Virus genome (UHGV): UHGV-2170436
DNA from: a virus
Direction: 5' to 3' (one strand)
Length of the DNA: 35,580 nucleotides
Shown here: piece after piece, positions 5,721 to 23,071 of the stretch
Layout: each line of letters starts with the position of its first letter
Position numbering within the stretch: the first letter of the stretch is position 1
Position numbers and translations under genes: made by a program
Notes under the pieces: model-generated
Seen by the model: only the letters and a program-made list of their open reading frames with translations
Database searches by the model: none
Told to the model about the DNA's origin: nothing

Positions 5721-8700
5721 TTAAGAAACAGTAATACCCGTAGTAGCTTTTTTAGTTACCATTACAGTTAAATCACTGATCCATGTGCTAGGCGTCCAGT
5801 TGTTGATTGCGCTTGATTGCACTTCAAAGGTCAAGGTCACAGCACCTTTACCCGCTGGCATATCAATAACACCTGAGTAAAGACCAGTATTACCGCCATA
5901 CGCCCTATTATACAACTCTGACCCATTCTTACGAACAATCAGGCGACAGGTGTCGTAATAGGTATTATTGTTCGACCCTTCACGCGCTCGCAATCCACCA
6001 AAACTAATTGCCGGAATAACGATTTGACGATCGAACTTGTGATCATCTTCAACGCGAACGGTTACTGTACCTTGCGGATAGCCACCATAACCATTATCAA
6101 CGTTAACATCACGGTGTGGGAACTTACGACCAATCACCTTAACGAAATCACCCTTAACCTGAGTAGCTTCAAGCATACCCTTAATAACACAGCTAGAGTT
6201 AATCGTGACGTTGTTCAGAGTACCGGAATCAGCCGTGATATTACCTTTAACGGTAGCGTTCATGAACGTAGCACTACCGTTCTTATTGATATGCCATCCG
6301 GTAGATCCGTTCCAGTTGGAAGACTGGATATAGTTACCGATTTTAGCGTTATCAATTGCGCCATTTACAATCTTGGCGTTGGTGATCGCGCCGTCTTGGA
6401 TTTTCGCTGAATTGATCGCAGCATTGCCAATTTTAGCCGTGGTGATACTAGCATCAGTAATCTGTGCTGATCCGATTGAGGCATTACGAATCATCGCATT
6501 ATCGAGATAAACCTTGTTACCTTCGATACCAAACGGGCAAACATCGGTCCCGTTCTGCGGAGCTACAGCAATTTTATCAGCCGTAAAGATGATTTTAGTC
6601 GGTTGTGCCGGATCGTTAGTTGCGCTCATGTGAATGCCAGCCACGCGACCATCTGCATTAACTGCTAGATTGTATTTGCTGTTAATGGTTCCCTTCAAAG
6701 CATCGATCTTAACGTCCGCTTCCTGATTCACACCAGCAATCTTGCCATCCATTTCTACCCGAACTTGGTCAATCTTACTTGCGCTTGCTGCTTCACTGGT
6801 AGCAATAGCTTGTTTCAGGGTTGTAGCGGAGGCGCTAACTTCTTTGGTGATATCGCCTTTCAGTTCAGCTTTAACCTGATCAATCTTAGTTGAACTTGCC
6901 TTATCACCAGAAGCAATCAGACTCTTTAAGGTATCGGCTGAGGCTTGAACAGTTTTACCCGTCTCGGTAGTGATTTGCTTATGCATTGCATCAATTTTAG
7001 CATCGGCATTAGCGCCAGCTTGAGCAATAGCATCAGCGATGGTTTCATCTAAGCGATCTTGTAAACCAATCAGGTCTTCCAGTGCTTCTTTGTCCTGATC
7101 GTCCCAGCTAATGGTAGATTTCATTTGCATGAAATACGGTTCAGACCAAACAGCATCATCCATACCGAAAATATCGTAGTGAGCACCACGGATATAATAA
7201 TCACCGTCAGCAATATCAAAGGAAGTATGGCTAACACTATTCGTGCTTACTGCCCTTGCATCTGAGAAAGTGTTGTCGGTTGCATACTGGATGATTGACC
7301 CTGCATAGTCATGTTCTACGTCATCCGCCCAGCTAACAAACGCAGTATTAAAGCCACCACGCGCACTAAAACCTTTCATTGGCTTATGTTGTGGGTTGAT
7401 AGCCACTAAACGCGCTGGGGCGCTCTCTGAGTTGTTATAGCCCTTAGCTGATACTTCTACCGTCAGTTGACGCGAAAGGCCGTTAAACTGGTTCATATCA
7501 AGCGTATAAGTCCATGATTCAGGATCGCGGGTACGGTACTGAATAGACTTACCAGCCTTGTTAGTCACCTTGATAATGTATGCTTCAAACAGGTCACTAA
7601 ACTTGTTAGTTTCACCGTTGATCATCACATCTAATTGTTGCTGGTTTTCCCATTCGATAATCAGATCATTACCTTCGAAAGTTCCTGGCGTGCTACCCTG
7701 ATTTTTGATTCGAATAACCGGAGTCGGCAATTCATAGGTAACGGTAGGATTCTGGTTAACCAGTTCTACCCAATCGGATCGCGCGATGATACCGAAAGCA
7801 CAAACTCGGTAATCGTAGGAACGATCTTTTGCCAGTGCATTGACACTGAAAATTTGCTGTGAAGTCTGTCCCAACTTAATCCAGTTAGGTGATCCGCTTA
7901 CACGGTAATCAATCTGGAAGCCGTAGCGGTTAAAATCTTCCGGTGCATCCCATGTCAAAGTAACGTTTTTACCGTAAATCGTCTCGCCAGTTGCCTTAAT
8001 TCTGAAATTAGTAGGCTTCTGTACTGTCATTGAATCCGGTAAACCACTTGGTCTATTGTCTGGAGTTGCCGCATAGTTCAGGTCAGTATAAACCTGAGAA
8101 TTATATTCTGTAGCGGTGATAGTCATCATCCCAGCAATACCAGAATCAATAGAACGATCAATTGCGGTAATACGCCAAAGTGAATTATTCAGTTTCAATT
8201 CATCATAGGTTACGCTGATAACGTCCCAAACTTCGGCAGTGAATGCGTCAGTAGTCATAAAGCTGATAACCTGAGTGATACGAGATTTATTTCGTTCTAC
8301 ACTCGCAAGTTTATCAATCTGGGCTTTAGACTTAACAAAACGATATTCAATATCTTTAGCGATAATTCGACCATCTTGACGAATAGTAGCATCGTTTTCA
8401 GCATCAGCCGGATAACGTAGCATTTGCTCGGAATAGTCAATTGATGGTTCCTGATACATCGCGTTAATGGTATTGAAATAACCGTTAGTGCCACCTGTTT
8501 TCAGTGATACCTTACCCATCATGATATTGTCTTCATTGAAGGTATGCTTAACAATATCAGGAGCATCCAGTTTCAGGGTAATTCTTCCGAAGGATTCGAA
8601 CATCACCCCGCCGAAAGTCTGCATAAGGCTAGTTAAGTTCTCTTTAAAGCTGGCGTTCGGATCACATGCACCGTTTGAATGCAAATCCATCTGGCGTACT

Positions 8701-14389: not shown

Positions 14390-14896
14390 TTAAGAGATTT
14401 TCAAAGTCTGCTTAGTGCCAGTCTTCTTAATGTTATTGAGGAAAGCTGCCGGAGGATTGCTTAACCAGTAGTAATGAAAACCACTTTGCATACTGTTATA
14501 AGGAACAGTGACAGCAGCACCACCCAAATTAACGGTTATATTCCCCGCTCTACCGTTCTGGAGATATACAGCCATAGTAGGAGTACCGCCATTGAATTGA
14601 CCAACGATAACGCCAATTAGACGGCCTACGCCCACGTTTTCGGGGTTCTCCATAGATCCTTTGCTTTGCATACCGGAAACAGGATAGTTTGAAGCAGTTA
14701 CACCCCAGTTATTACCCAATGAAGTAGACCACGATGCAGTAGCTACAACCGTATCCATACCACGACCAGCCATTGCCGACATATTACGCGGAGCCGGAAC
14801 TTTTAAAGCTGTTAATGCTTCTTTCATCCATCGCTTACCCGTCACCGATACAGCAGATGATCCGACCCAGCCGGGCTTATTAACGACATTTGCCAT
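14390..14896 (-). CDS. hypothetical tail-region protein
   Basis: ATG at 14896 with GGAG RBS; Gly/Ser/Thr-rich, no recognisable motif. Confidence 0.4.
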   Translation of the reverse strand: MANVVNKPGWVGSSAVSVTGKRWMKEALTALKVPAPRNMSAMAGRGMDTVVATASWSTSLGNNWGVTASNYPVSGMQSKGSMENPENVGVGRLIGVIVGQFNGGTPTMAVYLQNGRAGNITVNLGGAAVTVPYNSMQSGFHYYWLSNPPAAFLNNIKKTGTKQTLKIS

Positions 14897-14911
14897 TTTG
14901 ATTACTCCAAT

Positions 14912-14940
14912 AAAAAAGCCCCACCATTAAGGCAGGGCTT
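14912..14940 (-). terminator. Rho-independent terminator after extended major tail protein ORF
   Basis: Minus-strand RNA AGCCCUGCC-UUAAU-GGUGGGGCU (9 bp incl. two G-U pairs) followed by UUUUUU. Confidence 0.6.
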
Positions 14941-14944
14941 AAAA

Positions 14945-15070
14945 TTAATTCTTAGCCTTGCGGCCTCGTTTTGCTGTGGCTTTCGCCGTAACTTCTTCTA
15001 CTTCTGGAATCACCACCGCTTCATGTTCCGGTAGTGGTTCCGGTTCTATTAAAGGAAGTTCTTCGTTAGT
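14945..15070 (-). other. In-frame post-TGA extension of the major tail protein gene (41 codons; putative readthrough domain)
   Basis: Translates in the same frame as 15071..15541 as TNEELPLIEPEPLPEHEAVVIPEVEEVTAKATAKRGRKAKN, ending at TAA 14945-14947. Confidence 0.5.
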
Positions 15071-15541
15071 TCATCCGGCAGTGAAGATTTCCTGTTTGAT
15101 CGGCTTTCCGTCCACCGCGAAGGTAAACTCTTTGGTTACAACTTCTTCATCGCCACCGTTCATAGCAACTTTAGAAATAAAGCCGTTGAAAGCGGTGCGA
15201 ATACCAGTCTGTTTTGCTGCATCAACATAGTATTCAATCTTAATCTGAATTCGAGTACCGTCTTCGGCAGCTTTAATGAGCTTCTCGTGCACCGCATCGC
15301 CTGGGATGTAGTTAACGGTCAGAGTCAGATCAGGAACGTTCAGTTTCCCTACCAGCTTACGGTTATACTGAGAAGAGAAGGATTTAACTTCTACAGTACC
15401 GCGCTCGATACCAGTTTCAGGAAAACCAGCACACTCTTTAATTTCTTCGTAACCGGAGTGATCGAGAGCGGTGTTAGTGGTATCAGCGTGATAGAACAGA
15501 CTTACCAGACCACCAGTAAAAATATCATTAAATTGAGACAT
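15071..15541 (-). CDS. major tail (tube) protein candidate
   Basis: Position upstream of chaperone pair and tape measure; AAGGGG RBS; ends ...EIFTAG-TGA. Confidence 0.55.
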   Translation of the reverse strand: MSQFNDIFTGGLVSLFYHADTTNTALDHSGYEEIKECAGFPETGIERGTVEVKSFSSQYNRKLVGKLNVPDLTLTVNYIPGDAVHEKLIKAAEDGTRIQIKIEYYVDAAKQTGIRTAFNGFISKVAMNGGDEEVVTKEFTFAVDGKPIKQEIFTAG

Positions 15542-15597: not shown

Positions 15598-18500
15598 TTA
15601 TTTAGTTGCTTTGAGTTCGGCAATCTCTTTAGTCAATGCTTCAATCTTAGCTTGATATTTGGCGTCCATTTCCTGAATAGCTTTAATAATCAAGGCATTA
15701 ACAGCAGAGTTAGAAATAGTCTTAATTGCTTCCGGTTGTTCTGGATCTTCGGTGGATTGAATACCTACTGCTTCCGGCAACACTTCTTCCAGATCCTGAG
15801 CAATAATACCTACTTCGCGTTTAATCACTGTGTCATCTGAAAGAGATTTAACTTTATCGTAGGTGTAGACTTTCAGGGAGTTTACTTTCTCTAATGCGCC
15901 GTCCTGTAATTCTTCCTTGTTAATCTTCAAACGGGAGTCAGAGCGAATGTAAACATCGTTAAAGCTACCGTTACGACCTGCGGTAAAGTCACCATCCATA
16001 GTAAATTCCCAGCGTGCTTGCTGCCCGTTGGCGTTATCGCCACGCATACGGATAATACCAGTACGCCAACCGTGAGTCGAACCGCTACCCGTCCAACCAA
16101 ACTCGAAGGACTGACGATAACCAACATCACCTAAGTTACTATAGCCAGCGATAATAGGGAAATATGCACCAGACCCCTTAATACTATCCATGTTAACCAA
16201 GAATGGAGCACGGTCACGAGTTACATCAGAGATATCGGAATAACCTAAACCATTTTTGTTAGCAACAACAACACGACGGTTAAAGGTAATGCCGCCAGAT
16301 GTGTGACGAACAACATTAACGTTATTAGCGTAGGTATCAAGGACACCATCACCGTTTTGTTTAAATCCAGTATCACTATCGCCTAAAACAATAGAATTTC
16401 CACCCAATCCGTTAGCAACACCAACACCAAAACCGCTATTAAACTTAGGAATGGTTGCATCCTGACTAATAGACAGTTGGGGAGCGTTAATTTTACCGTT
16501 TACGCTAAACTCGATTGCGGTAGTACCAGGACCGCCAGCACGCTGTGTGTAGAAATGCCAGCCGCTTTCATCTGCGCATTCTAATACTTGTTTACGAGTA
16601 TCATTACCCCATGCACGAATATTGAAGCTAGATTGTCCGGTATTCTTACCCCATCTCATTTGACCAGCAACTTCAAGATCACCTAAGAAATATGCCTTTA
16701 GTCCACCTGTAGCCATATTACGTTCGGTGCTGAAATGGCGACCTTTGCTGTCTTCGAGGTATAAAACGTTATCACGGGCGTTGTTGCTATCGCCCCAATG
16801 ATTAAATCGAATATAATCACGCGATCCAGAACGCCCAGCGTCGAAAGTCAAAAAACCTTTCTTAATGTAAACGTCATTACTAAAACGAGCGGCACGGCTT
16901 GCACGTTCTAACGTTAATGCATCTTCGTTACCATCACCGCCTAATTGAACGTTACCGGAAGTCAGATCATAAATGAATGGTCGATAAGTATTCCAACCAC
17001 CAAACTTATCGTTTTCAGCCGTTGACAGAAGATAAACTTTTGCGGAGTCATTGCGCCAAAATGCACCATAATTGCCGTAAATCATACGGAATGCATTTGA
17101 GTTAGCAGCTACATACTCGCCGTTTGTATATACAATTTTAGTTGCACCAGTGGTAATAGAGCATTGACCGTTAGCTTCTAGCTGAAATGAGTTTTTCCCC
17201 TGATCGCTATACCATTGGAAGTTATTTGTTTCAGCACTACCAAAACCAATCCAACCTTGACGAGCATTAGCACCATTGCGGCGGTCTTGCCATTCAATAT
17301 AGTTTGATTGATTACTAGGACGCTCTAATCTAAGAACGTTTTGTCCGGCATCAAATACACCTTTACCAGTAAACATGGTGCGACCAGTGATTCGTAGAAC
17401 TTCGCTAGAATCGGTAGTACCAGTCGCTAAACGATAAACGTTACCTTGAACAGTTTCATGCCAGATTGTTTCTGCGGCTTTACTACGGAATTTACGAAGA
17501 TATTTTTTACCAGTACCTGAATCGTTATTCAAACTGACAATATCATATGTACCCTGTCCGTTATTATCAAACATCAACGTTCCGGCCTTGTTTTCGGTGT
17601 TGAACATTGTAATAACACGTCCATCTGTAACACCAGTAGACGGCTTAACGTTAGTCATAGCTGGGGTGTCATGAACAGTCAGTGAAACACCGCTAGTCTT
17701 ACCATATTCGACAATAACGTTATCAGTATAACGACCGTAGTTAACGTAAATGTCGTAGTTATCACCGGAAGTATTAACCGCAAATACTTGATGAACGTTC
17801 AAAGAGTTTCGACGATAAGCAGCAATACTAACGCCTTTCGGGTTATTGTTACCGGAACGGATAACAATTTCAAGGAAATCAACCTGATCATAGGAGTTAA
17901 CGTTATAACCATTACCACCGAAGATACGAAGCATTACCATACGACCATTTTGTGGGATCGTAGCCGTAGCAATCTTGAAATAAGCACGGGATTCACTACC
18001 AGAAGGAACAGACATTGTGACATTTTTAATAAACATCTTATCAATTTCGCCTTTGGTATATGCGCCAATTTCAGCAGGAGTCGGTTTATCCCCTTCGTGA
18101 TACATTTTATAGCTAAACGCTTTTTGTCCCTGAGCATCAAAACCATAGGTTTCAACACGAGATCCGCCAGACGCATAACGGAAAGTAAATCCTCGACCAT
18201 GCGCTTTACCGGAAGAGTGAGGAACGTTAAGGGTTAGATCCATGAGTCCATCTTGACCATTGGTACGGAATGCACCGAAGTAATTAAGATCTCTCGCGGT
18301 TGAATCTTCCAGATAGTTACCAGTCTTGCTATACAAATACGCGCCGTGATAGGTCTTTGTGTTCTTCTTGATATATGCTGCGTTAGCACTACCTTCAATA
18401 CCATCAATTCGCTTGTTGGCGGCTGTAATTGCGGCATCGGTCGATGATTTGTTCTGGTCTACCTTGTTGTTAATAGCGGTATGGTTACTATTCACAGTGC

Positions 18501-19206
18501 CAGTAAGGTTACTGATTTTAGTATCAGCATCTTTCTTGTTGTCGGAAACGACCTTTTCAATCGCTGTTTTGTTAGCTGCAACCGTGCTAGTTAAGCTAGA
18601 AATTTTGTTATCTGCATCGGTTTTATTTGCAGTAACAGTTTTAGTTAAGTTGCTAACGTTGGTGTTAGTGGTATTAACCTTGTTGTTAATCGCGGTGTTA
18701 TTGTCAGTGACCGTTTTCGTTAAAGCTGCATGTTTGCTATCTGCATCAGATTTGTTTGCGGCAACGGTTCTTTCAATTGCGGTCTTATTCGCAGATACGG
18801 TCCCCGTAAGGTTATTGATCTTAGTGTCGGCATCGGTTTTATTTGCCGTAACTGTCTGGGTTAAGTTACTAACAGTGGTGTTGGTAGCATCAATGCGCTT
18901 ATTGGTTGCGGTGTCTTTAGCGGTAATAGTCTGATTCAGTTCAGCTTTAACACTAGCCAGATTATTAGCGGCCTCTTGTTTGTTGGAAGCAATAACACGG
19001 TCAGTGCTAGTTTTATTCTGGTCTACTTTCGTGTTAAGTTCAGCGTGTTTTTCTGGAGAAACAGAGATTTGAACTACTGCGTTATTTTTATCTTTGGTAT
19101 ACAGAACGTGATCAGCAAGGTTAATAGCCAATTCACCCTGTGATAATTGTTCCGGCGTTGGTTTTTTACCAGCCGTTTGTGTGCGTTTAAATTGGATTGA
19201 TTGCAT
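15598..19206 (-). CDS. long (side) tail fibre protein with C-terminal intramolecular chaperone domain
   Basis: 1202 aa; N-terminal repetitive NKTDADTKI..LT.TV shaft repeats; C-terminus SDSRLKINKEELQDGALEKVNSLKVYTYDK matches the autoproteolytic chaperone (S74-type) signature of endosialidase/T5 pb1-type fibres. Confidence 0.8.
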   Translation of the reverse strand: MQSIQFKRTQTAGKKPTPEQLSQGELAINLADHVLYTKDKNNAVVQISVSPEKHAELNTKVDQNKTSTDRVIASNKQEAANNLASVKAELNQTITAKDTATNKRIDATNTTVSNLTQTVTANKTDADTKINNLTGTVSANKTAIERTVAANKSDADSKHAALTKTVTDNNTAINNKVNTTNTNVSNLTKTVTANKTDADNKISSLTSTVAANKTAIEKVVSDNKKDADTKISNLTGTVNSNHTAINNKVDQNKSSTDAAITAANKRIDGIEGSANAAYIKKNTKTYHGAYLYSKTGNYLEDSTARDLNYFGAFRTNGQDGLMDLTLNVPHSSGKAHGRGFTFRYASGGSRVETYGFDAQGQKAFSYKMYHEGDKPTPAEIGAYTKGEIDKMFIKNVTMSVPSGSESRAYFKIATATIPQNGRMVMLRIFGGNGYNVNSYDQVDFLEIVIRSGNNNPKGVSIAAYRRNSLNVHQVFAVNTSGDNYDIYVNYGRYTDNVIVEYGKTSGVSLTVHDTPAMTNVKPSTGVTDGRVITMFNTENKAGTLMFDNNGQGTYDIVSLNNDSGTGKKYLRKFRSKAAETIWHETVQGNVYRLATGTTDSSEVLRITGRTMFTGKGVFDAGQNVLRLERPSNQSNYIEWQDRRNGANARQGWIGFGSAETNNFQWYSDQGKNSFQLEANGQCSITTGATKIVYTNGEYVAANSNAFRMIYGNYGAFWRNDSAKVYLLSTAENDKFGGWNTYRPFIYDLTSGNVQLGGDGNEDALTLERASRAARFSNDVYIKKGFLTFDAGRSGSRDYIRFNHWGDSNNARDNVLYLEDSKGRHFSTERNMATGGLKAYFLGDLEVAGQMRWGKNTGQSSFNIRAWGNDTRKQVLECADESGWHFYTQRAGGPGTTAIEFSVNGKINAPQLSISQDATIPKFNSGFGVGVANGLGGNSIVLGDSDTGFKQNGDGVLDTYANNVNVVRHTSGGITFNRRVVVANKNGLGYSDISDVTRDRAPFLVNMDSIKGSGAYFPIIAGYSNLGDVGYRQSFEFGWTGSGSTHGWRTGIIRMRGDNANGQQARWEFTMDGDFTAGRNGSFNDVYIRSDSRLKINKEELQDGALEKVNSLKVYTYDKVKSLSDDTVIKREVGIIAQDLEEVLPEAVGIQSTEDPEQPEAIKTISNSAVNALIIKAIQEMDAKYQAKIEALTKEIAELKATK

Positions 19207-19286: not shown

Positions 19287-20120
19287 TTAGTATTCGCCGA
19301 AATCGATCCGGTCAGTCTTAGCCACTGCGCCAATTTCGCTAGGTGTCGGTTTCTCGTTTGTAGAATAGACTTTAATCCATTCAGATTTACCGTTTTCCTG
19401 AATATTTCGGACGCGTAAACGCGGTGCGCCAGAAGTATTACAGGTTAATTGCCATGCGCCATGCTCATTAGCTTGAAGATGAATTAACGATGTATCAGCA
19501 CCATAAGGGTTAGTGCTAGCAGTTCCCTTGTAAGTTACGAAACGGTTTCCTGTCAGAGATTCACTATCAATAGGACCACTGAAAGGATTTACACCAGCAC
19601 CGATACCAAAATCACCCTGACGTAAGATCCGGCCTTCGGTAGCAATACCCCTTGCCAAAATCCCGCCATCTGGTTCAAGTTTAAATTCCAGTGTTACAGC
19701 TTTGTTATCTGCGCCACGGGTTTTGTGACTAGTGACATAAGCGTCATAGATGACATAGTAACCAGTGTTAGCAGCACTATAGCCAGAGTTCACAACATAG
19801 AACATACGGAAGCGTAAAGGTGTTTTATCCTCTACCGCTTTCATCAACATTGCTTGATGTTCATCGTCAAGAACACGGTTTAATGTGAGTGTTGTCGGTT
19901 CCAGTCTACGATAACCAGCAAGTTTCCCCGTAGCGTCCTGATCGTACTCTTCCAGAGTTTCTATCTCTGTGGATTCGGTTAGCGTAGGGAATGCTGCGAT
20001 GTTCTCCATAGAACTAAAGCTAGGATCGAAAAAGTCGACCTGATTGTCTATCTGGTTAGAGATCGACACTTCAACATGTGATCCAGTGAAAATATCTAAG
20101 TTATCTTGTGTAATATTCAT
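19287..20120 (-). CDS. tail protein of uncertain role
   Basis: C-terminal KVYSTNEKPTPSEIGAVAKTDRID resembles an internal segment of the long tail fibre (KMYHEGDKPTPAEIGAYTKGEID). Confidence 0.4.
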   Translation of the reverse strand: MNITQDNLDIFTGSHVEVSISNQIDNQVDFFDPSFSSMENIAAFPTLTESTEIETLEEYDQDATGKLAGYRRLEPTTLTLNRVLDDEHQAMLMKAVEDKTPLRFRMFYVVNSGYSAANTGYYVIYDAYVTSHKTRGADNKAVTLEFKLEPDGGILARGIATEGRILRQGDFGIGAGVNPFSGPIDSESLTGNRFVTYKGTASTNPYGADTSLIHLQANEHGAWQLTCNTSGAPRLRVRNIQENGKSEWIKVYSTNEKPTPSEIGAVAKTDRIDFGEY

Positions 20121-20826: not shown

Positions 20827-20856
20827 AGTTACCCCCTTTATGGAGTATTTACATAC

Positions 20857-20882
20857 AAAAAAGCCCCGCACTAGGCAGGGCT
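20857..20882 (-). terminator. Rho-independent terminator after extended capsid ORF
   Basis: Minus-strand RNA AGCCCUGC-CUAGU-GCGGGGCU followed by UUUUUU; related in sequence to the terminator at 14912-14940. Confidence 0.6.
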
Positions 20883-20887
20883 AATTA

Positions 20888-21016
20888 TCATTCTTTAGGC
20901 TTGCGGCCTCGTTTTGCTGTGGCTTTCGCCGTAACCGTCTGGGATTCTTCTTCCGGTTTAGGAATCAGATTTTCTTCCCCCGAATCGGGGGAAGGTTCAG
21001 AAGGTTCTACAGGAGT
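20888..21016 (-). other. In-frame post-TGA extension of the capsid gene (42 codons; putative readthrough domain)
   Basis: Same frame as 21017..23071; translates TPVEPSEPSPDSGEENLIPKPEEESQTVTAKATAKRGRKPKE, ends at tandem stops TGA-TAA; contains no in-frame ATG/GTG/TTG. Confidence 0.5.
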
Positions 21017-23071
21017 TCAGTCAACTTTTTTCTGAACTACGGTCAGTGCGCTATGGTCCATAACAGCCCAATCCAGATCAGCCCATACACGGAAGTACAG
21101 GTTGCCAGCCGCGCGACCTGTGGTATCGTCGCAATCCAGTTCCAGCGATCCGAAGTCTGCAACAACAAGGGAGCTAAAGTCACCAAACAGCATGGTATCC
21201 TGAGCAACTACACCAGAGCCATAGATCGGACGGTTAACCAGTTTATCGCCTTCTACCAGGAAGCCCGGAACATTAGCTGCTTTGAGTTGCGCTGCCAGTT
21301 CAGCTTTAACAACACCACGGGTAGCAAATGCCAGATCCGCTTCGTTATAACCTTTGTCGGTCAGTTCAGCTACCAGTTTCAGGAACTCGGCATAGGTCCA
21401 ATCAATCTGTTTAACTTTGCCAGCGTCGGTCAGGATCTTAGTCAGACCATCACGAGCGTTAGTGTTAGCAGCATTGGACAGAATCGCTTTTTCCAGAGCG
21501 ATAGCACTGTGTTTCAGCATGTGCTCACCAACGATAGCGCCAATATTGGGCAGTGTGATTGCAGCCTGACGCGTTACAGGAACAATTCCGTTAAAAGTCT
21601 TGAGAGTCATCGGCTGCGCTGCAAACTTAATAGTACCTTCACCAGCGGATTGACCTTCTGCAACAAAACCGAAGTTTTCCAGATTGCTGGAAGTCAGAGA
21701 CGGCAGAGAAACAGGACCAGTTGCGTTAATGGTACGCACACCCAATTTACCCAGAATAGAACGTTCCATGATCATATCAACGAAGCAATCATGGCGGATT
21801 TCTTCACCAACTACTGGTTTCAGAGATTCCATGTTCTGGCTAGCACGCAGAGCGGACGCCGGAATGAATACGGAGTTAGAACGCTGCGCACGACCACGCG
21901 CTGCGGCTTTACGTGCTTCTTCCTGAGAATATTCAGCTTCTGCGCCAGTCAGGGCTTTACCCTCTGCGATTGCACGTACAGCTTTATTAAGATCGAAACG
22001 GGATTCCAGAGTTTTAATGGTATCGGTCATGGTAATTTTTCCTTTAACAAAAGTTTTAGATTCGGTAGTATTTAGTGCGCGTGCTTTTTCTTTAAAATTT
22101 TCAATAGTCACGGCACTATCTTTAATTGCAGCTTCAATCACGTCTTCGGAGATATTTAGATGTTTTCCGATAGCACGAATTTCGGCGGTATCTTCGCGAG
22201 AACGTTCAAACGGTTTTTCTTCGTCTTCAATCTTTTCTTCTTCGACTGGTTCGGATGTATTTTCCGTTTCGTCGTTCTCGTCTGTATCTTTATTTAGTTC
22301 TTCTGTTTCTTCCGGTTCATCTTCGGAACGTTCTTCTTTTTCTTCTGGCGTTACTTCTTGCGGTTCTTCCACATCTTCGCCACTGTCAGCACTATTTCCA
22401 GAATCGGAATCAATTTCTTCATTTTCTTGTTCCTCTTTCTCTTCTTCGGAACGTTTTTCTTCATCTTCCGGTTTAATTTCTTCGACCGGAGTATCTTTAA
22501 TTTCGTCTTCCACTTGTTCACCCTCCAAAACAATCATTTCGTTGTCTGTATTTAGAGAGCGTCCAACACCCGCATTAAATGGATCTGCGGCACACGTTAC
22601 AAGACTGCATTCGAAAGGTTGCCAGCGTGTAACATAATAGATCCCTTTGTTAAAATCGGCTTTGCCATCAAGAACGTTATAACCGACGCTAACTTGTGAA
22701 AGTGTTCCCTCTTTTACCTTCTCAAAGCATTCATTAGCCAGTTGGCCTACTTTGGAGAATTGGACAAGGCAACGACCTACACGGTCTTCGTCAATACGAG
22801 CGGAGCCAGGAACAATCTTGCCGATATGAAGATCCAGATTGTGATTAAACAGAAGACTTGCGTTAGTCTCGTTTAAAACGGATAGATCAACCGCTGATTC
22901 ATCGTGTACGAGAATCTCTTTTAATTCGACTTGCTCGCCGTCCTGATTCATGTAATAACGTGTATAAGGAGCCTCGCTTGAGAAAGCCAATTCAATAATT
23001 CGTTCGTCTTTTTCTTCGATAAAATCAGGGGTATCTACCGCAACACTACGACGGAATTGTTTTGTTGTCAT
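21017..23071 (-). CDS. prohead protease - scaffold - major capsid protein fusion
   Basis: 684 aa: N-terminal ~170 aa protease-like region, highly acidic Glu/Asp-rich linker, C-terminal ~400 aa capsid-like domain; follows the portal gene. Confidence 0.65.
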   Translation of the reverse strand: MTTKQFRRSVAVDTPDFIEEKDERIIELAFSSEAPYTRYYMNQDGEQVELKEILVHDESAVDLSVLNETNASLLFNHNLDLHIGKIVPGSARIDEDRVGRCLVQFSKVGQLANECFEKVKEGTLSQVSVGYNVLDGKADFNKGIYYVTRWQPFECSLVTCAADPFNAGVGRSLNTDNEMIVLEGEQVEDEIKDTPVEEIKPEDEEKRSEEEKEEQENEEIDSDSGNSADSGEDVEEPQEVTPEEKEERSEDEPEETEELNKDTDENDETENTSEPVEEEKIEDEEKPFERSREDTAEIRAIGKHLNISEDVIEAAIKDSAVTIENFKEKARALNTTESKTFVKGKITMTDTIKTLESRFDLNKAVRAIAEGKALTGAEAEYSQEEARKAAARGRAQRSNSVFIPASALRASQNMESLKPVVGEEIRHDCFVDMIMERSILGKLGVRTINATGPVSLPSLTSSNLENFGFVAEGQSAGEGTIKFAAQPMTLKTFNGIVPVTRQAAITLPNIGAIVGEHMLKHSAIALEKAILSNAANTNARDGLTKILTDAGKVKQIDWTYAEFLKLVAELTDKGYNEADLAFATRGVVKAELAAQLKAANVPGFLVEGDKLVNRPIYGSGVVAQDTMLFGDFSSLVVADFGSLELDCDDTTGRAAGNLYFRVWADLDWAVMDHSALTVVQKKVD

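Follow-up and report, generated by a model that had tools for sequence, protein, structure and literature searches.

A UGA codon at the end of both the major capsid gene and the tail tube gene is probably decoded from time to time by tRNA-Trp, which would yield minor capsid and tube subunits extended at their C-termini. In each gene the additional residues would come from a 3' module that we call a UGA-gated C-terminal extension cassette. This reading is based on an invariant UGA-A at two major virion genes, an open frame 0 that lacks start codons, tightly placed stops and a basic tail that has been kept.

The window, i.e. the whole 35,580-nucleotide stretch UHGV-2170436, derives from a temperate siphovirus-like prophage of E. 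coli. It encodes a large serine recombinase (Pfam). Of 5,426 complete E. coli genomes, 55 carry the prophage in the chromosome, and a search of plasmids gave no match; E. coli HCP5S3_I4, a 100% match, and E. coli 39EVA are among the carriers. When the window was compared with 50,697 phage records by megablast, the tail-fibre gene, a T-even-like segment, was the sole match, and apart from this segment the DNA is unrelated to that of isolated phages. The nearest isolated phage, DCP80, shares 37-46% protein identity, uses TAA stops and has no extension. Neither tRNA genes nor Rfam families were found in the window.

Capsid and tail tube genes are normally the highest-expressed genes. Here, the capsid fusion gene contains the Pfam domains Peptidase_S78 and Phage_capsid and is assigned to the PHROG major head protein, while the tube gene matches Pfam Phage_TTP_11 and the PHROG major tail protein. 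Their stop codons are TGA at 21017-21019 and TGA at 15071-15073, respectively, each with an A at position +4 (21016 and 15070). Among the 23 late genes, 21 end in TAA and only these two in TGA. In the NCBI PGAP annotation, both genes stop at the TGA and the extensions carry no feature; in this way, annotation pipelines leave 130-190 nt as 'intergenic'. The positions of all features are listed in Table 1.

Table 1. Genes, extensions and RNA features of the capsid and tube cassettes in the window
Feature	Position	Strand	Remarks
Prohead protease (S78)-acidic linker-HK97-type major capsid fusion gene	21017..23071	-	684 aa
Capsid extension ORF	20891..21016	-	42 codons, frame 0 after TGA
RNA hairpin CUUCCCCC-GAUUC-GGGGGAAG	20974..20994	-	22 nt 3' of capsid UGA; may stimulate readthrough or be a structural feature of the mRNA
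36-nt identical segment, capsid copy	20900..20935	-	Encodes VTAKATAKRGRK
Final stops of capsid extension, tandem TGA TAA	20885..20890	-	Read from sequence
Intrinsic terminator, capsid cassette	20856..20882	-	AGCCCTGCC-TAGTG-CGGGGCT + T-run
Tail tube gene, lambda gpV tube-domain type	15071..15541	-	156 aa
Tube extension ORF	14948..15070	-	41 codons, frame 0 after TGA; TAA at 14945-14947
36-nt identical segment, tube copy	14957..14992	-	Site of original observation
Intrinsic terminator, tube cassette	14910..14940	-	AAGCCCTGCC-TTAAT-GGTGGGGCTT + T-run

A 36-nt segment shared by two 3' cassettes

The analysis started from a first-pass annotation of the window, which had pointed out a 36-nt segment of perfect identity, encoding the same peptide, in the 3' regions of the two genes. 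This observation is exact. The plus-strand sequence CTTGCGGCCTCGTTTTGCTGTGGCTTTCGCCGTAAC occurs precisely twice in the window, and no further copy was found there when up to three mismatches were allowed. As 100 shuffled sequences give an expectation of 0, a chance repeat was rejected as its source. On the minus strand the segment reads GTT ACG GCG AAA GCC ACA GCA AAA CGA GGC CGC AAG, translated as V T A K A T A K R G R K, and each copy shares the reading frame of the gene upstream of it.

The annotation had regarded the 3' regions as otherwise unrelated, a description that does not hold. Both begin with TGA-ACT, the alignment of the capsid linker with the tube linker scores above 979 of 1000 shuffles, and through the stop and the terminator the cassettes are ~70% identical (38 matches in 55 alignment columns). 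Together, these similarities indicate two diverged copies of one cassette, homologous well outside the segment, and the 36-mer is the best-conserved stretch of these copies.

The annotation's suggestion of a duplicated or recombined 3' module is supported by the relatives. The same extension and terminator follow the tube gene and also capsid alleles whose last 250 residues share no more than 38-40% identity, and chimeric cassettes exist in which capsid genes carry a tube-like NNEELPEE linker. The longest run common to both cassettes of one genome amounts to 36, 31, 24-25, 19 or 14 nt, and at one synonymous site the capsid and tube copies switch together between GCA and GCT. The varying length of the shared run, the parallel synonymous site and the chimeric cassettes argue for gene conversion between the cassettes. 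On these sequence comparisons, the exact 36-nt identity is attributed to common origin together with gene conversion or recombination. In Providencia, a short 'TNEELPEE' cassette behind the capsid gene is similar to the tube cassette, which is restricted to E. coli; the tube cassette is therefore probably a derived copy of this short capsid type.

Matches to the family lie at the 3' ends of capsid and tube genes and not in non-coding contexts unrelated to structural genes, the finding that the annotation had named as evidence against its proposal. A 16-mer scan of IMG/VR returned 40 distinct family contexts, all 40 of them at capsid or tube 3' ends, and the remaining 21 contexts were unrelated chance matches. 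The metagenome scan yielded E. coli-type variants only, plus two chance matches.

Conservation of the stop codon, the reading frame and the peptide

Conservation downstream of the two genes was assessed in two unbiased sets. For the capsid set, loci were picked via the conserved intergenic sequence beyond the terminator, which gave 35 distinct 3' regions spanning 12 alleles at the capsid C-terminus. A TGA with A at position +4, followed by 28-44 open codons, is present in 34 of the 35 regions. The sole exception, L018, has a 1-nt deletion in the A-run just before the TGA, which shifts the frame and creates the allele TELL; this is the twelfth allele, and the TGA is kept behind the other 11. 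Apart from the frameshifted L018, the first capsid stop is never TAA or TAG. The final stop of the 35 capsid regions is TAA first in 31 and TGA first in 4, and a second in-frame stop directly follows the first in capsid cassettes (TAATAA or TGATAA). For the tube set, close relatives were picked by protein similarity, and all 23 have TGA-ACT, with 36-41 codons open up to a TAA.

Across the cassettes, 28-45 codons are open in frame 0 after the TGA. In a single sequence, 41-42 open codons are not rare (chance P about 0.11-0.16); frame 0 is uninterrupted in more than 50 distinct cassettes from three genera, while the other two frames hold 2-4 stops. The 20 capsid-type and 16 tube-type DNA variants of the extension fall into nine length classes, six for the capsid and three for the tube, all of them multiples of 3. 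Independent initiation inside the extension was rejected, as the window's capsid extension contains no ATG, GTG or TTG; the tube extension also has no start codon, and none of the three codons is conserved in the extensions. The TTG start of P0031 reads TCG in the window.

These patterns bear on the idea that the extensions are decaying remnants of longer genes cut by a nonsense mutation, with the 36-nt identity reflecting a recent duplication without function. With pN/pS at 0.70 (capsid extension) and 0.46 (tube extension), the linker is only weakly constrained, and such weak purifying selection would be compatible with decay, as would the frameshift just before the TGA in L018. A dead tail would, however, gather stops and frameshifts, whereas the downstream frame has stayed open through many indels. 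The preservation of the TGA behind 11 capsid C-terminal alleles, in two genes and three genera, and the near-complete lack of TAA and TAG as first stop, with L018 as the exception, are likewise not expected of a remnant, and we regard this explanation as scarcely credible.

Both extensions of the window have a common layout, in which an acidic, proline-rich linker leads into VTAKATAK and a Lys/Arg tail; a tight stop ends the frame, and an intrinsic terminator comes directly after it. The capsid extension consists of TPVEPSEPSPDSGEENLIPKPEEESQT (net charge -7) and then VTAKATAKRGRKPKE (net charge +5), the tube extension of TNEELPLIEPEPLPEHEAVVIPEVEE (net charge -9) and then VTAKATAKRGRKAKN (net charge +6). 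At least four nucleotide-unrelated versions of the basic tail were found (RGRKPKE, KKQRKTKE, KKERKTKAK and KKVGRPPKAK); further basic tails are KRGRKAKN and KRSRKAKD in the tube extension, and KRRKSK also occurs.

In other genera, the capsid genes of Salmonella L116 and L121 and of Providencia L117 also end with TGA-A and an extension (TPVEPSEPLPDNGESETPSVTAKATKRGRKPKE, NNEELPEEIPVATAKATKRGRKPKA and TNEELPEEEPLPVATEKSTKRRKSK, respectively), and the terminators of these cassettes differ from the E. coli ones. Other Salmonella capsid genes have no internal stop and carry a short basic tail within the main ORF, which ends in SETRVKK, TAVAKAK, PAGRSK or ASKAK directly before the stop. Stop-free basic tails, ending in GSRK, GLRK or SARK before the stop, are also found in Salmonella tube genes. 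The basic tail is kept at the amino-acid level, and homologues of it are translated constitutively in the main ORF of these relatives. In the more distant relatives DCP80, Yersinia and L043 the genes end in TAA with nothing beyond, and a scan of GTDB genomes with the capsid alignment returned one distant Yersinia locus, which ends in TAATAA without an extension. Within E. coli, one tube allele (L018, L019 and L118) has a TAA directly before the terminator and no extension.

No sense codon in place of the TGA was found among the relatives, and a chimeric query composed of the capsid end, W and the extension gave no match. The extension itself gave no match in a tblastn search against phages, and a phmmer search against 1.84 billion representatives retrieved nothing but a 33-aa ORF that had been miscalled from this extension. 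A 198-aa tube 'fusion' in the database (P0004) was rejected as an artefact of a gene call with TGA=Trp, as its DNA has TGA.

The 198-aa readthrough product of the tube gene was modelled with AF2 from an alignment of 27 relatives. The tube domain is modelled with confidence and best matches the tube proteins of YDC107, lambda (gpV), 80alpha and SPP1, while residues 158-198 have pLDDT values of 38-53 and no secondary structure and are thus predicted to be disordered. No Pfam domain was found in the extension. Against Pfam AT_hook, the variant KKVGRPPKAK reached 13.1 bits (E 0.09; cut-off 17.4 bits), and neither the tails of the window, KRGRKPKE and KRGRKAKN, nor the types KKQRKTKE and KKERKTKAK matched. 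With the window tails unmatched and the best variant below the Pfam cut-off, identity with an AT-hook was rejected; the KRGRK tail bears no more than a weak resemblance to one.

RNA hairpins and terminators

In the long capsid cassette, a hairpin of the form CUUCCCCC-GAUUY-GGGGGAAG has the same stem in all 27 distinct E. coli variants, while its flanks are variable. The corresponding hairpin of Salmonella L116, CUCUCCCC-GAUAAU-GGGGAGAG, differs by two compensatory base pairs, which change the peptide (S to L and E to S). Some changes that preserve the hairpin thus alter the peptide, so part of the conservation lies at the RNA level. In the short capsid cassette, an 11-bp stem lies ~10 nt after the UGA, and four sequences representing three genera show 100% pairing in it; two of its pairs covary, with a score reached by 10 of 500 shuffles in this small sample. 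The hairpin loops vary (GAUUC, GAUUU, GAUAAU, GAAA and AAGAACCG). In the tube extension a conserved hairpin is not supported, with z values of -0.7 and +0.75 in two cassette types. The 36-mer itself can form a mini-hairpin of 3 bp, GGC-GAAA-GCC, for which a single compensatory variant was found, GGA-GAAA-UCC, also in Providencia; shuffles reach this result in 21 of 500 cases. The proposal that the RNA or DNA of the segment has a function beyond coding thus has thin support for the 36-mer itself, while a covarying hairpin is present elsewhere in the capsid extension. A search of Rfam, both at the gathering threshold and with E up to 10, gave no match and no SECIS element, and the sub-threshold hits were driven by the terminators.

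The hairpins may also be viewed as parts of an untranslated, structured 3' UTR that, together with the terminator, stabilises the abundant capsid and tube mRNA or gives rise to two sibling small RNAs. The invariant capsid stem with compensatory changes that alter encoded residues points in this direction, as do a 20-nt core with almost no synonymous change, the retention of the mini-hairpin in the allele GGA-GAAA-UCC, the fairly high pN/pS and a folding of the regions that is more stable than in shuffled sequences (z about -3.8). However, an element acting as RNA only would need neither an invariant TGA-A nor an open frame, let alone length classes that are all multiples of 3 (9 of 9) and a frame 0 intact in the three genera. 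The segment adjoining the stop has been swapped for unrelated nucleotides, all of which encode Lys/Arg tails, and relatives carry similar tails within the main ORF. The lack of an Rfam family match and the mini-hairpin covariation, which amounts to one cell and is reached by 21 of 500 shuffles, also speak against it, and we consider a purely untranslated role unlikely. Because the hairpin is real, this explanation is partly compatible with readthrough, and the hairpin may serve recoding.

A stable hairpin after the capsid UGA, and a gene caller that picked TGA=Trp for a related contig, could further be taken to suggest that the UGA is decoded in another manner, i.e. by hairpin-directed selenocysteine insertion, by a phage suppressor tRNA or a reassigned code, or that it is bypassed by a frameshift or hop. 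Selenocysteine is at odds with the negative Rfam search, with hairpin loops that differ among the variants and with a tube cassette that has no conserved hairpin. No tRNA gene was found in the window, and TGA interrupts only the capsid and tube genes, other TGA stops being ordinary. As the extension is in frame 0, no frameshift is needed. An A-run precedes the capsid TGA, but a -1 frameshift on it was rejected, as the A-run is in the wrong register and is missing from other alleles. Taken together, any of these decoding routes is very improbable.

As the first-pass annotation had stated, both copies of the segment are followed by a terminator. The terminator-like sites at 14940..14916 and 20882..20862 on the minus strand are the top two of the 10-kb region, and in both cassettes a GC-rich stem-loop with a U-run is located at the 3' end of the unit. 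The stems are essentially invariant, with 98.9% pairing across 21 cassette variants. The compensatory stem changes that had been claimed for the two terminators were rejected, as the differences are one-sided: a G-U to G-C change, one lost closing pair and changes in the loops.

In each cassette, 5-8 nt separate the stop of the extension from the terminator stem, an arrangement that raises the possibility of translation-coupled control of termination. Ribosomes reading through the UGA would mask the 5' arm of the terminator and thereby set the level of transcription into the downstream head-tail and tail genes. This would agree with the conserved frame and stop position and with the location of both terminators inside a long late operon, whose downstream genes still need to be expressed. 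However, alleles without an extension (the L018 and L019 tube genes, Salmonella L113 and DCP80) place their TAA equally close to the terminator, so the spacing is the default layout. Moreover, a few per cent of readthrough ribosomes would rescue only a few per cent of the transcripts, and VTAKATAK, the basic tail and the acidic, proline-rich composition are left unexplained. Hence, we hold a control of this kind to be improbable. The patterns of frame, stop codon and peptide fit readthrough better than any of the four alternatives, i.e. the decaying remnant, the untranslated 3' UTR, another decoding of the UGA and terminator control.

The proposed readthrough products in comparison with known systems

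If the cassettes are translated by readthrough, most ribosomes would terminate at the UGA of the capsid or tube gene, while a few per cent would decode it with the near-cognate Trp-tRNA(Trp) and continue. The product would be a minority of capsid and tube subunits with the disordered acidic, proline-rich linker, VTAKATAK and the Lys/Arg tail. In the capsid mRNA, the hairpin 10-22 nt after the UGA may raise or tune readthrough; to our knowledge, hairpin-stimulated readthrough has not been established for bacteria. A UGA followed by A is described, in a passage of PMC5289835 citing Engelberg-Kulka 1981, as the E. coli context most prone to misreading by tRNA-Trp, and basal UGA readthrough in K-12 is ~2-4% (PMC10570021). 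From this basal rate, we estimate that each head and each tail would contain roughly a handful of extended subunits. Termination at UGA is more efficient in natural E. coli isolates than in K-12, so the yield of the extended form could be very low.

In lambda gpV, an Ig-like domain follows the tube domain and is located on the outside of the tail, which suggests that the tube extension would emerge on the outer face. For the capsid, we assume an outward-facing C-terminus by analogy with T7 gp10B display and the long forms of T3 and A2. The same cationic peptide would then be displayed in few copies on both head and tail. Speculatively, the basic tail may act as a surface-exposed cationic tether or non-specific adhesin for polyanions (LPS, capsule, DNA, mucus) and would in this respect be functionally analogous to the Ig-like domains that are appended by frameshifting in other phages. 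A stronger version, in which a dedicated signal composed of UGA-A and the covarying hairpin gives a set fraction of capsid and tube subunits one shared cationic 'tag', is possible but, in our view, doubtful. If true, programmed readthrough of a stop codon would be described for the first time from a tailed dsDNA phage, and the 3' cassette would be a portable unit, transferable from one structural gene to another. If the readthrough reading holds, the cassette would represent a natural low-copy display site on head and tail.

The closest mechanistic parallel is the minor coat protein A1 of phage Q-beta, whose extension begins with Thr. A1 is produced by 5% UGA readthrough (PMC7026636). As in the window, the host is E. 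coli, the major coat gene ends in a UGA of the leaky type, and the codon after the UGA starts with A. In Q-beta, readthrough by tRNA-Trp (~5%) yields a virion protein that is present in minor amounts and extended at its C-terminus (PMC7026636, PMC5289835), as is proposed here. Two hallmarks of Q-beta-type readthrough, a UGA-A stop of the leaky type and a conserved in-frame ORF downstream that lacks a start, were found here. Q-beta is, however, an ssRNA levivirus with a folded extension of ~196 aa that is needed for infectivity, whereas the window belongs to a dsDNA tailed prophage with a putative extension of ~41 aa that is predicted to be disordered. Moreover, in the window the extension occurs on two different structural genes and has a shared terminal peptide.

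With regard to the genes involved, the cassettes resemble phages that make long forms of capsid and tail proteins by frameshifting, namely the Listeria phages PSA, A118 and A500 and the Lactobacillus phage A2 (PMC5009743). The same two gene classes are affected, and recoding at the 3' end extends a fixed minority of the major capsid and major tail subunits at the C-terminus (PMC5009743). T3/T7 gp10B and SPP1 gp17.1* belong to the frameshift class as well, and the tube domain of the window matches the tube proteins of SPP1 and lambda. In PSA, A2, T3, T7 and SPP1 the ribosome changes frame at +1 or -1 slippery sites, whereas the extensions of the window lie in frame 0 behind a stop, with frames +1 and +2 closed. 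Furthermore, extensions of the PSA/A2 type are mostly folded Ig-like or FN3 domains, while those of the window consist of a linker and a basic tail and match no domain. We know of no report of a sequence common to the capsid and tail extensions of PSA, A118, A500 or A2.

Other systems share single features with the cassettes. Like an AT-hook (PF02178), the tail is a Lys/Arg-rich peptide with a G-R-P core, although only in one cassette type (KKVGRPPKAK), and a location on the virion surface would be ill suited to binding AT-rich DNA in the cell. Gut phages with reassigned TAG or TGA also have in-frame stops in late structural genes in a host with the standard code (bioRxiv 10.1101/2021.08.26.457843). 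In these phages, however, many in-frame stops are spread across the late genes, often together with suppressor tRNAs, whereas two genes of the window each have a single TGA, placed where the protein naturally ends, and no tRNA is encoded. The cassettes differ from bacterial selenocysteine insertion (SECIS) in that there is no Rfam match, the loops are not conserved and the tube cassette lacks a hairpin.

Programmed readthrough is well documented in RNA viruses and almost undocumented in bacteria and their DNA phages. Q-beta is the sole phage in the readthrough table of one review, in which bacteria are represented by one B. subtilis gene (PMC7026636). If confirmed, the cassettes would indicate that tailed phages make minor long virion proteins by readthrough as well as by frameshifting, that one small cassette comprising a leaky stop, a linker, a basic tail and a terminator can be copied between genes, and that a hairpin in the mRNA may tune the level of readthrough in E. 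coli. New in the present case is the putative dual UGA-readthrough cassette, in which a mechanism known from A1 of Q-beta would be combined with the capsid-and-tail logic of PSA and A2.

Stop codons and apparent exceptions to the putative readthrough cassette

Stop codon usage in the late operon of the window is strikingly uniform, with TAA terminating 21 of its 23 genes. Two related loci depart, or appear to depart, from the cassette, i.e. the in-frame C-terminal extension behind a TGA-A stop on the capsid and tail tube genes. In the public database entry P0004, a "tail tube protein" of 198 aa from the 842-bp contig L112 (ENA ERZ27280761), tube protein and extension appear fused, with a tryptophan at the stop position. 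The contig DNA at this position reads TGA; evidently, the gene caller picked a code with TGA as tryptophan for this short contig. At locus L018 (E. coli ETEC1703, NZ_CP122923.1), a run of five A replaces the A6 run about 12 nt upstream of the capsid TGA. As a consequence, the annotated capsid protein ends with ...KKLTELL at a TAG codon and the extension lies out of frame. Either the missing A is an error of sequencing, or this strain has naturally lost the long form.

The capsid 3' end takes other forms in two further relatives. In Edwardsiella tarda (Logan SRR5866647, locus L115, 2787-2860) the syntenic capsid gene stops at TGA-T and has no in-frame extension. Beyond GGG-TGA, the +1 frame codes for DTNWSGRGISKERSKA, followed by a stop, and extends to the terminator; it may represent an alternative way of adding a basic tail by recoding. 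In phage DCP80, the nearest isolated phage, a small ORF, MSLGAEALDAAPVKKSKSASG, is located between the capsid TAA and the terminator (7817-7879); its end is basic, and several stops separate it from the capsid frame.

Capsid and tube proteins and their neighbouring genes

Residues ca. 175-300 of the capsid fusion form a ~130-residue linker that is extremely acidic and rich in Glu and Asp. The 277-aa tube-like protein shares its major-tail-protein PHROG with the 156-aa tube protein, the match covering its N-terminal 150 residues, and it has an additional domain at the C-terminus. Directly after the tube cassette follows the Gp38-like adhesin gene; in L018, L019 and L118, related loci with a tube allele without the extension, this gene is absent too. 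In some relatives a ~340-aa DUF723/CapR-domain gene is inserted adjoining the capsid or tube gene, probably as a mobile or homing-endonuclease-like insertion.

Coordinates of the features in the window and in related loci
Feature	Sequence	Coordinates	Strand	Match
Late operon	window	3715-27121	minus	
Gp38-like adhesin gene	window	14390-14896	minus	Pfam Gp38_N; PHROG tail fibre adhesin
Fibre gene, 1202 aa	window	15598-19206	minus	
Second tube-like gene, 277 aa	window	19287-20120	minus	PHROG
Protease–scaffold-like–capsid fusion	window	21017-23071	minus	
DUF723/CapR-domain gene	L118	1144-2166		
DUF723/CapR-domain gene	L122	10118-11137		
DUF723/CapR-domain gene	L123	2608-3657		

Apparent mosaicism of the fibre gene

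Within the fibre gene, the segment 16523-18319 was the sole stretch of the 11-kb query with a match to any isolated phage. Its DNA is 74-86% identical to gene 37, the distal long-tail-fibre gene, of RB49, Phi1 and JSE-type T-even phages. The segment thus appears to have been exchanged, in mosaic fashion, between lytic myoviruses and a temperate prophage of siphovirus-like type.
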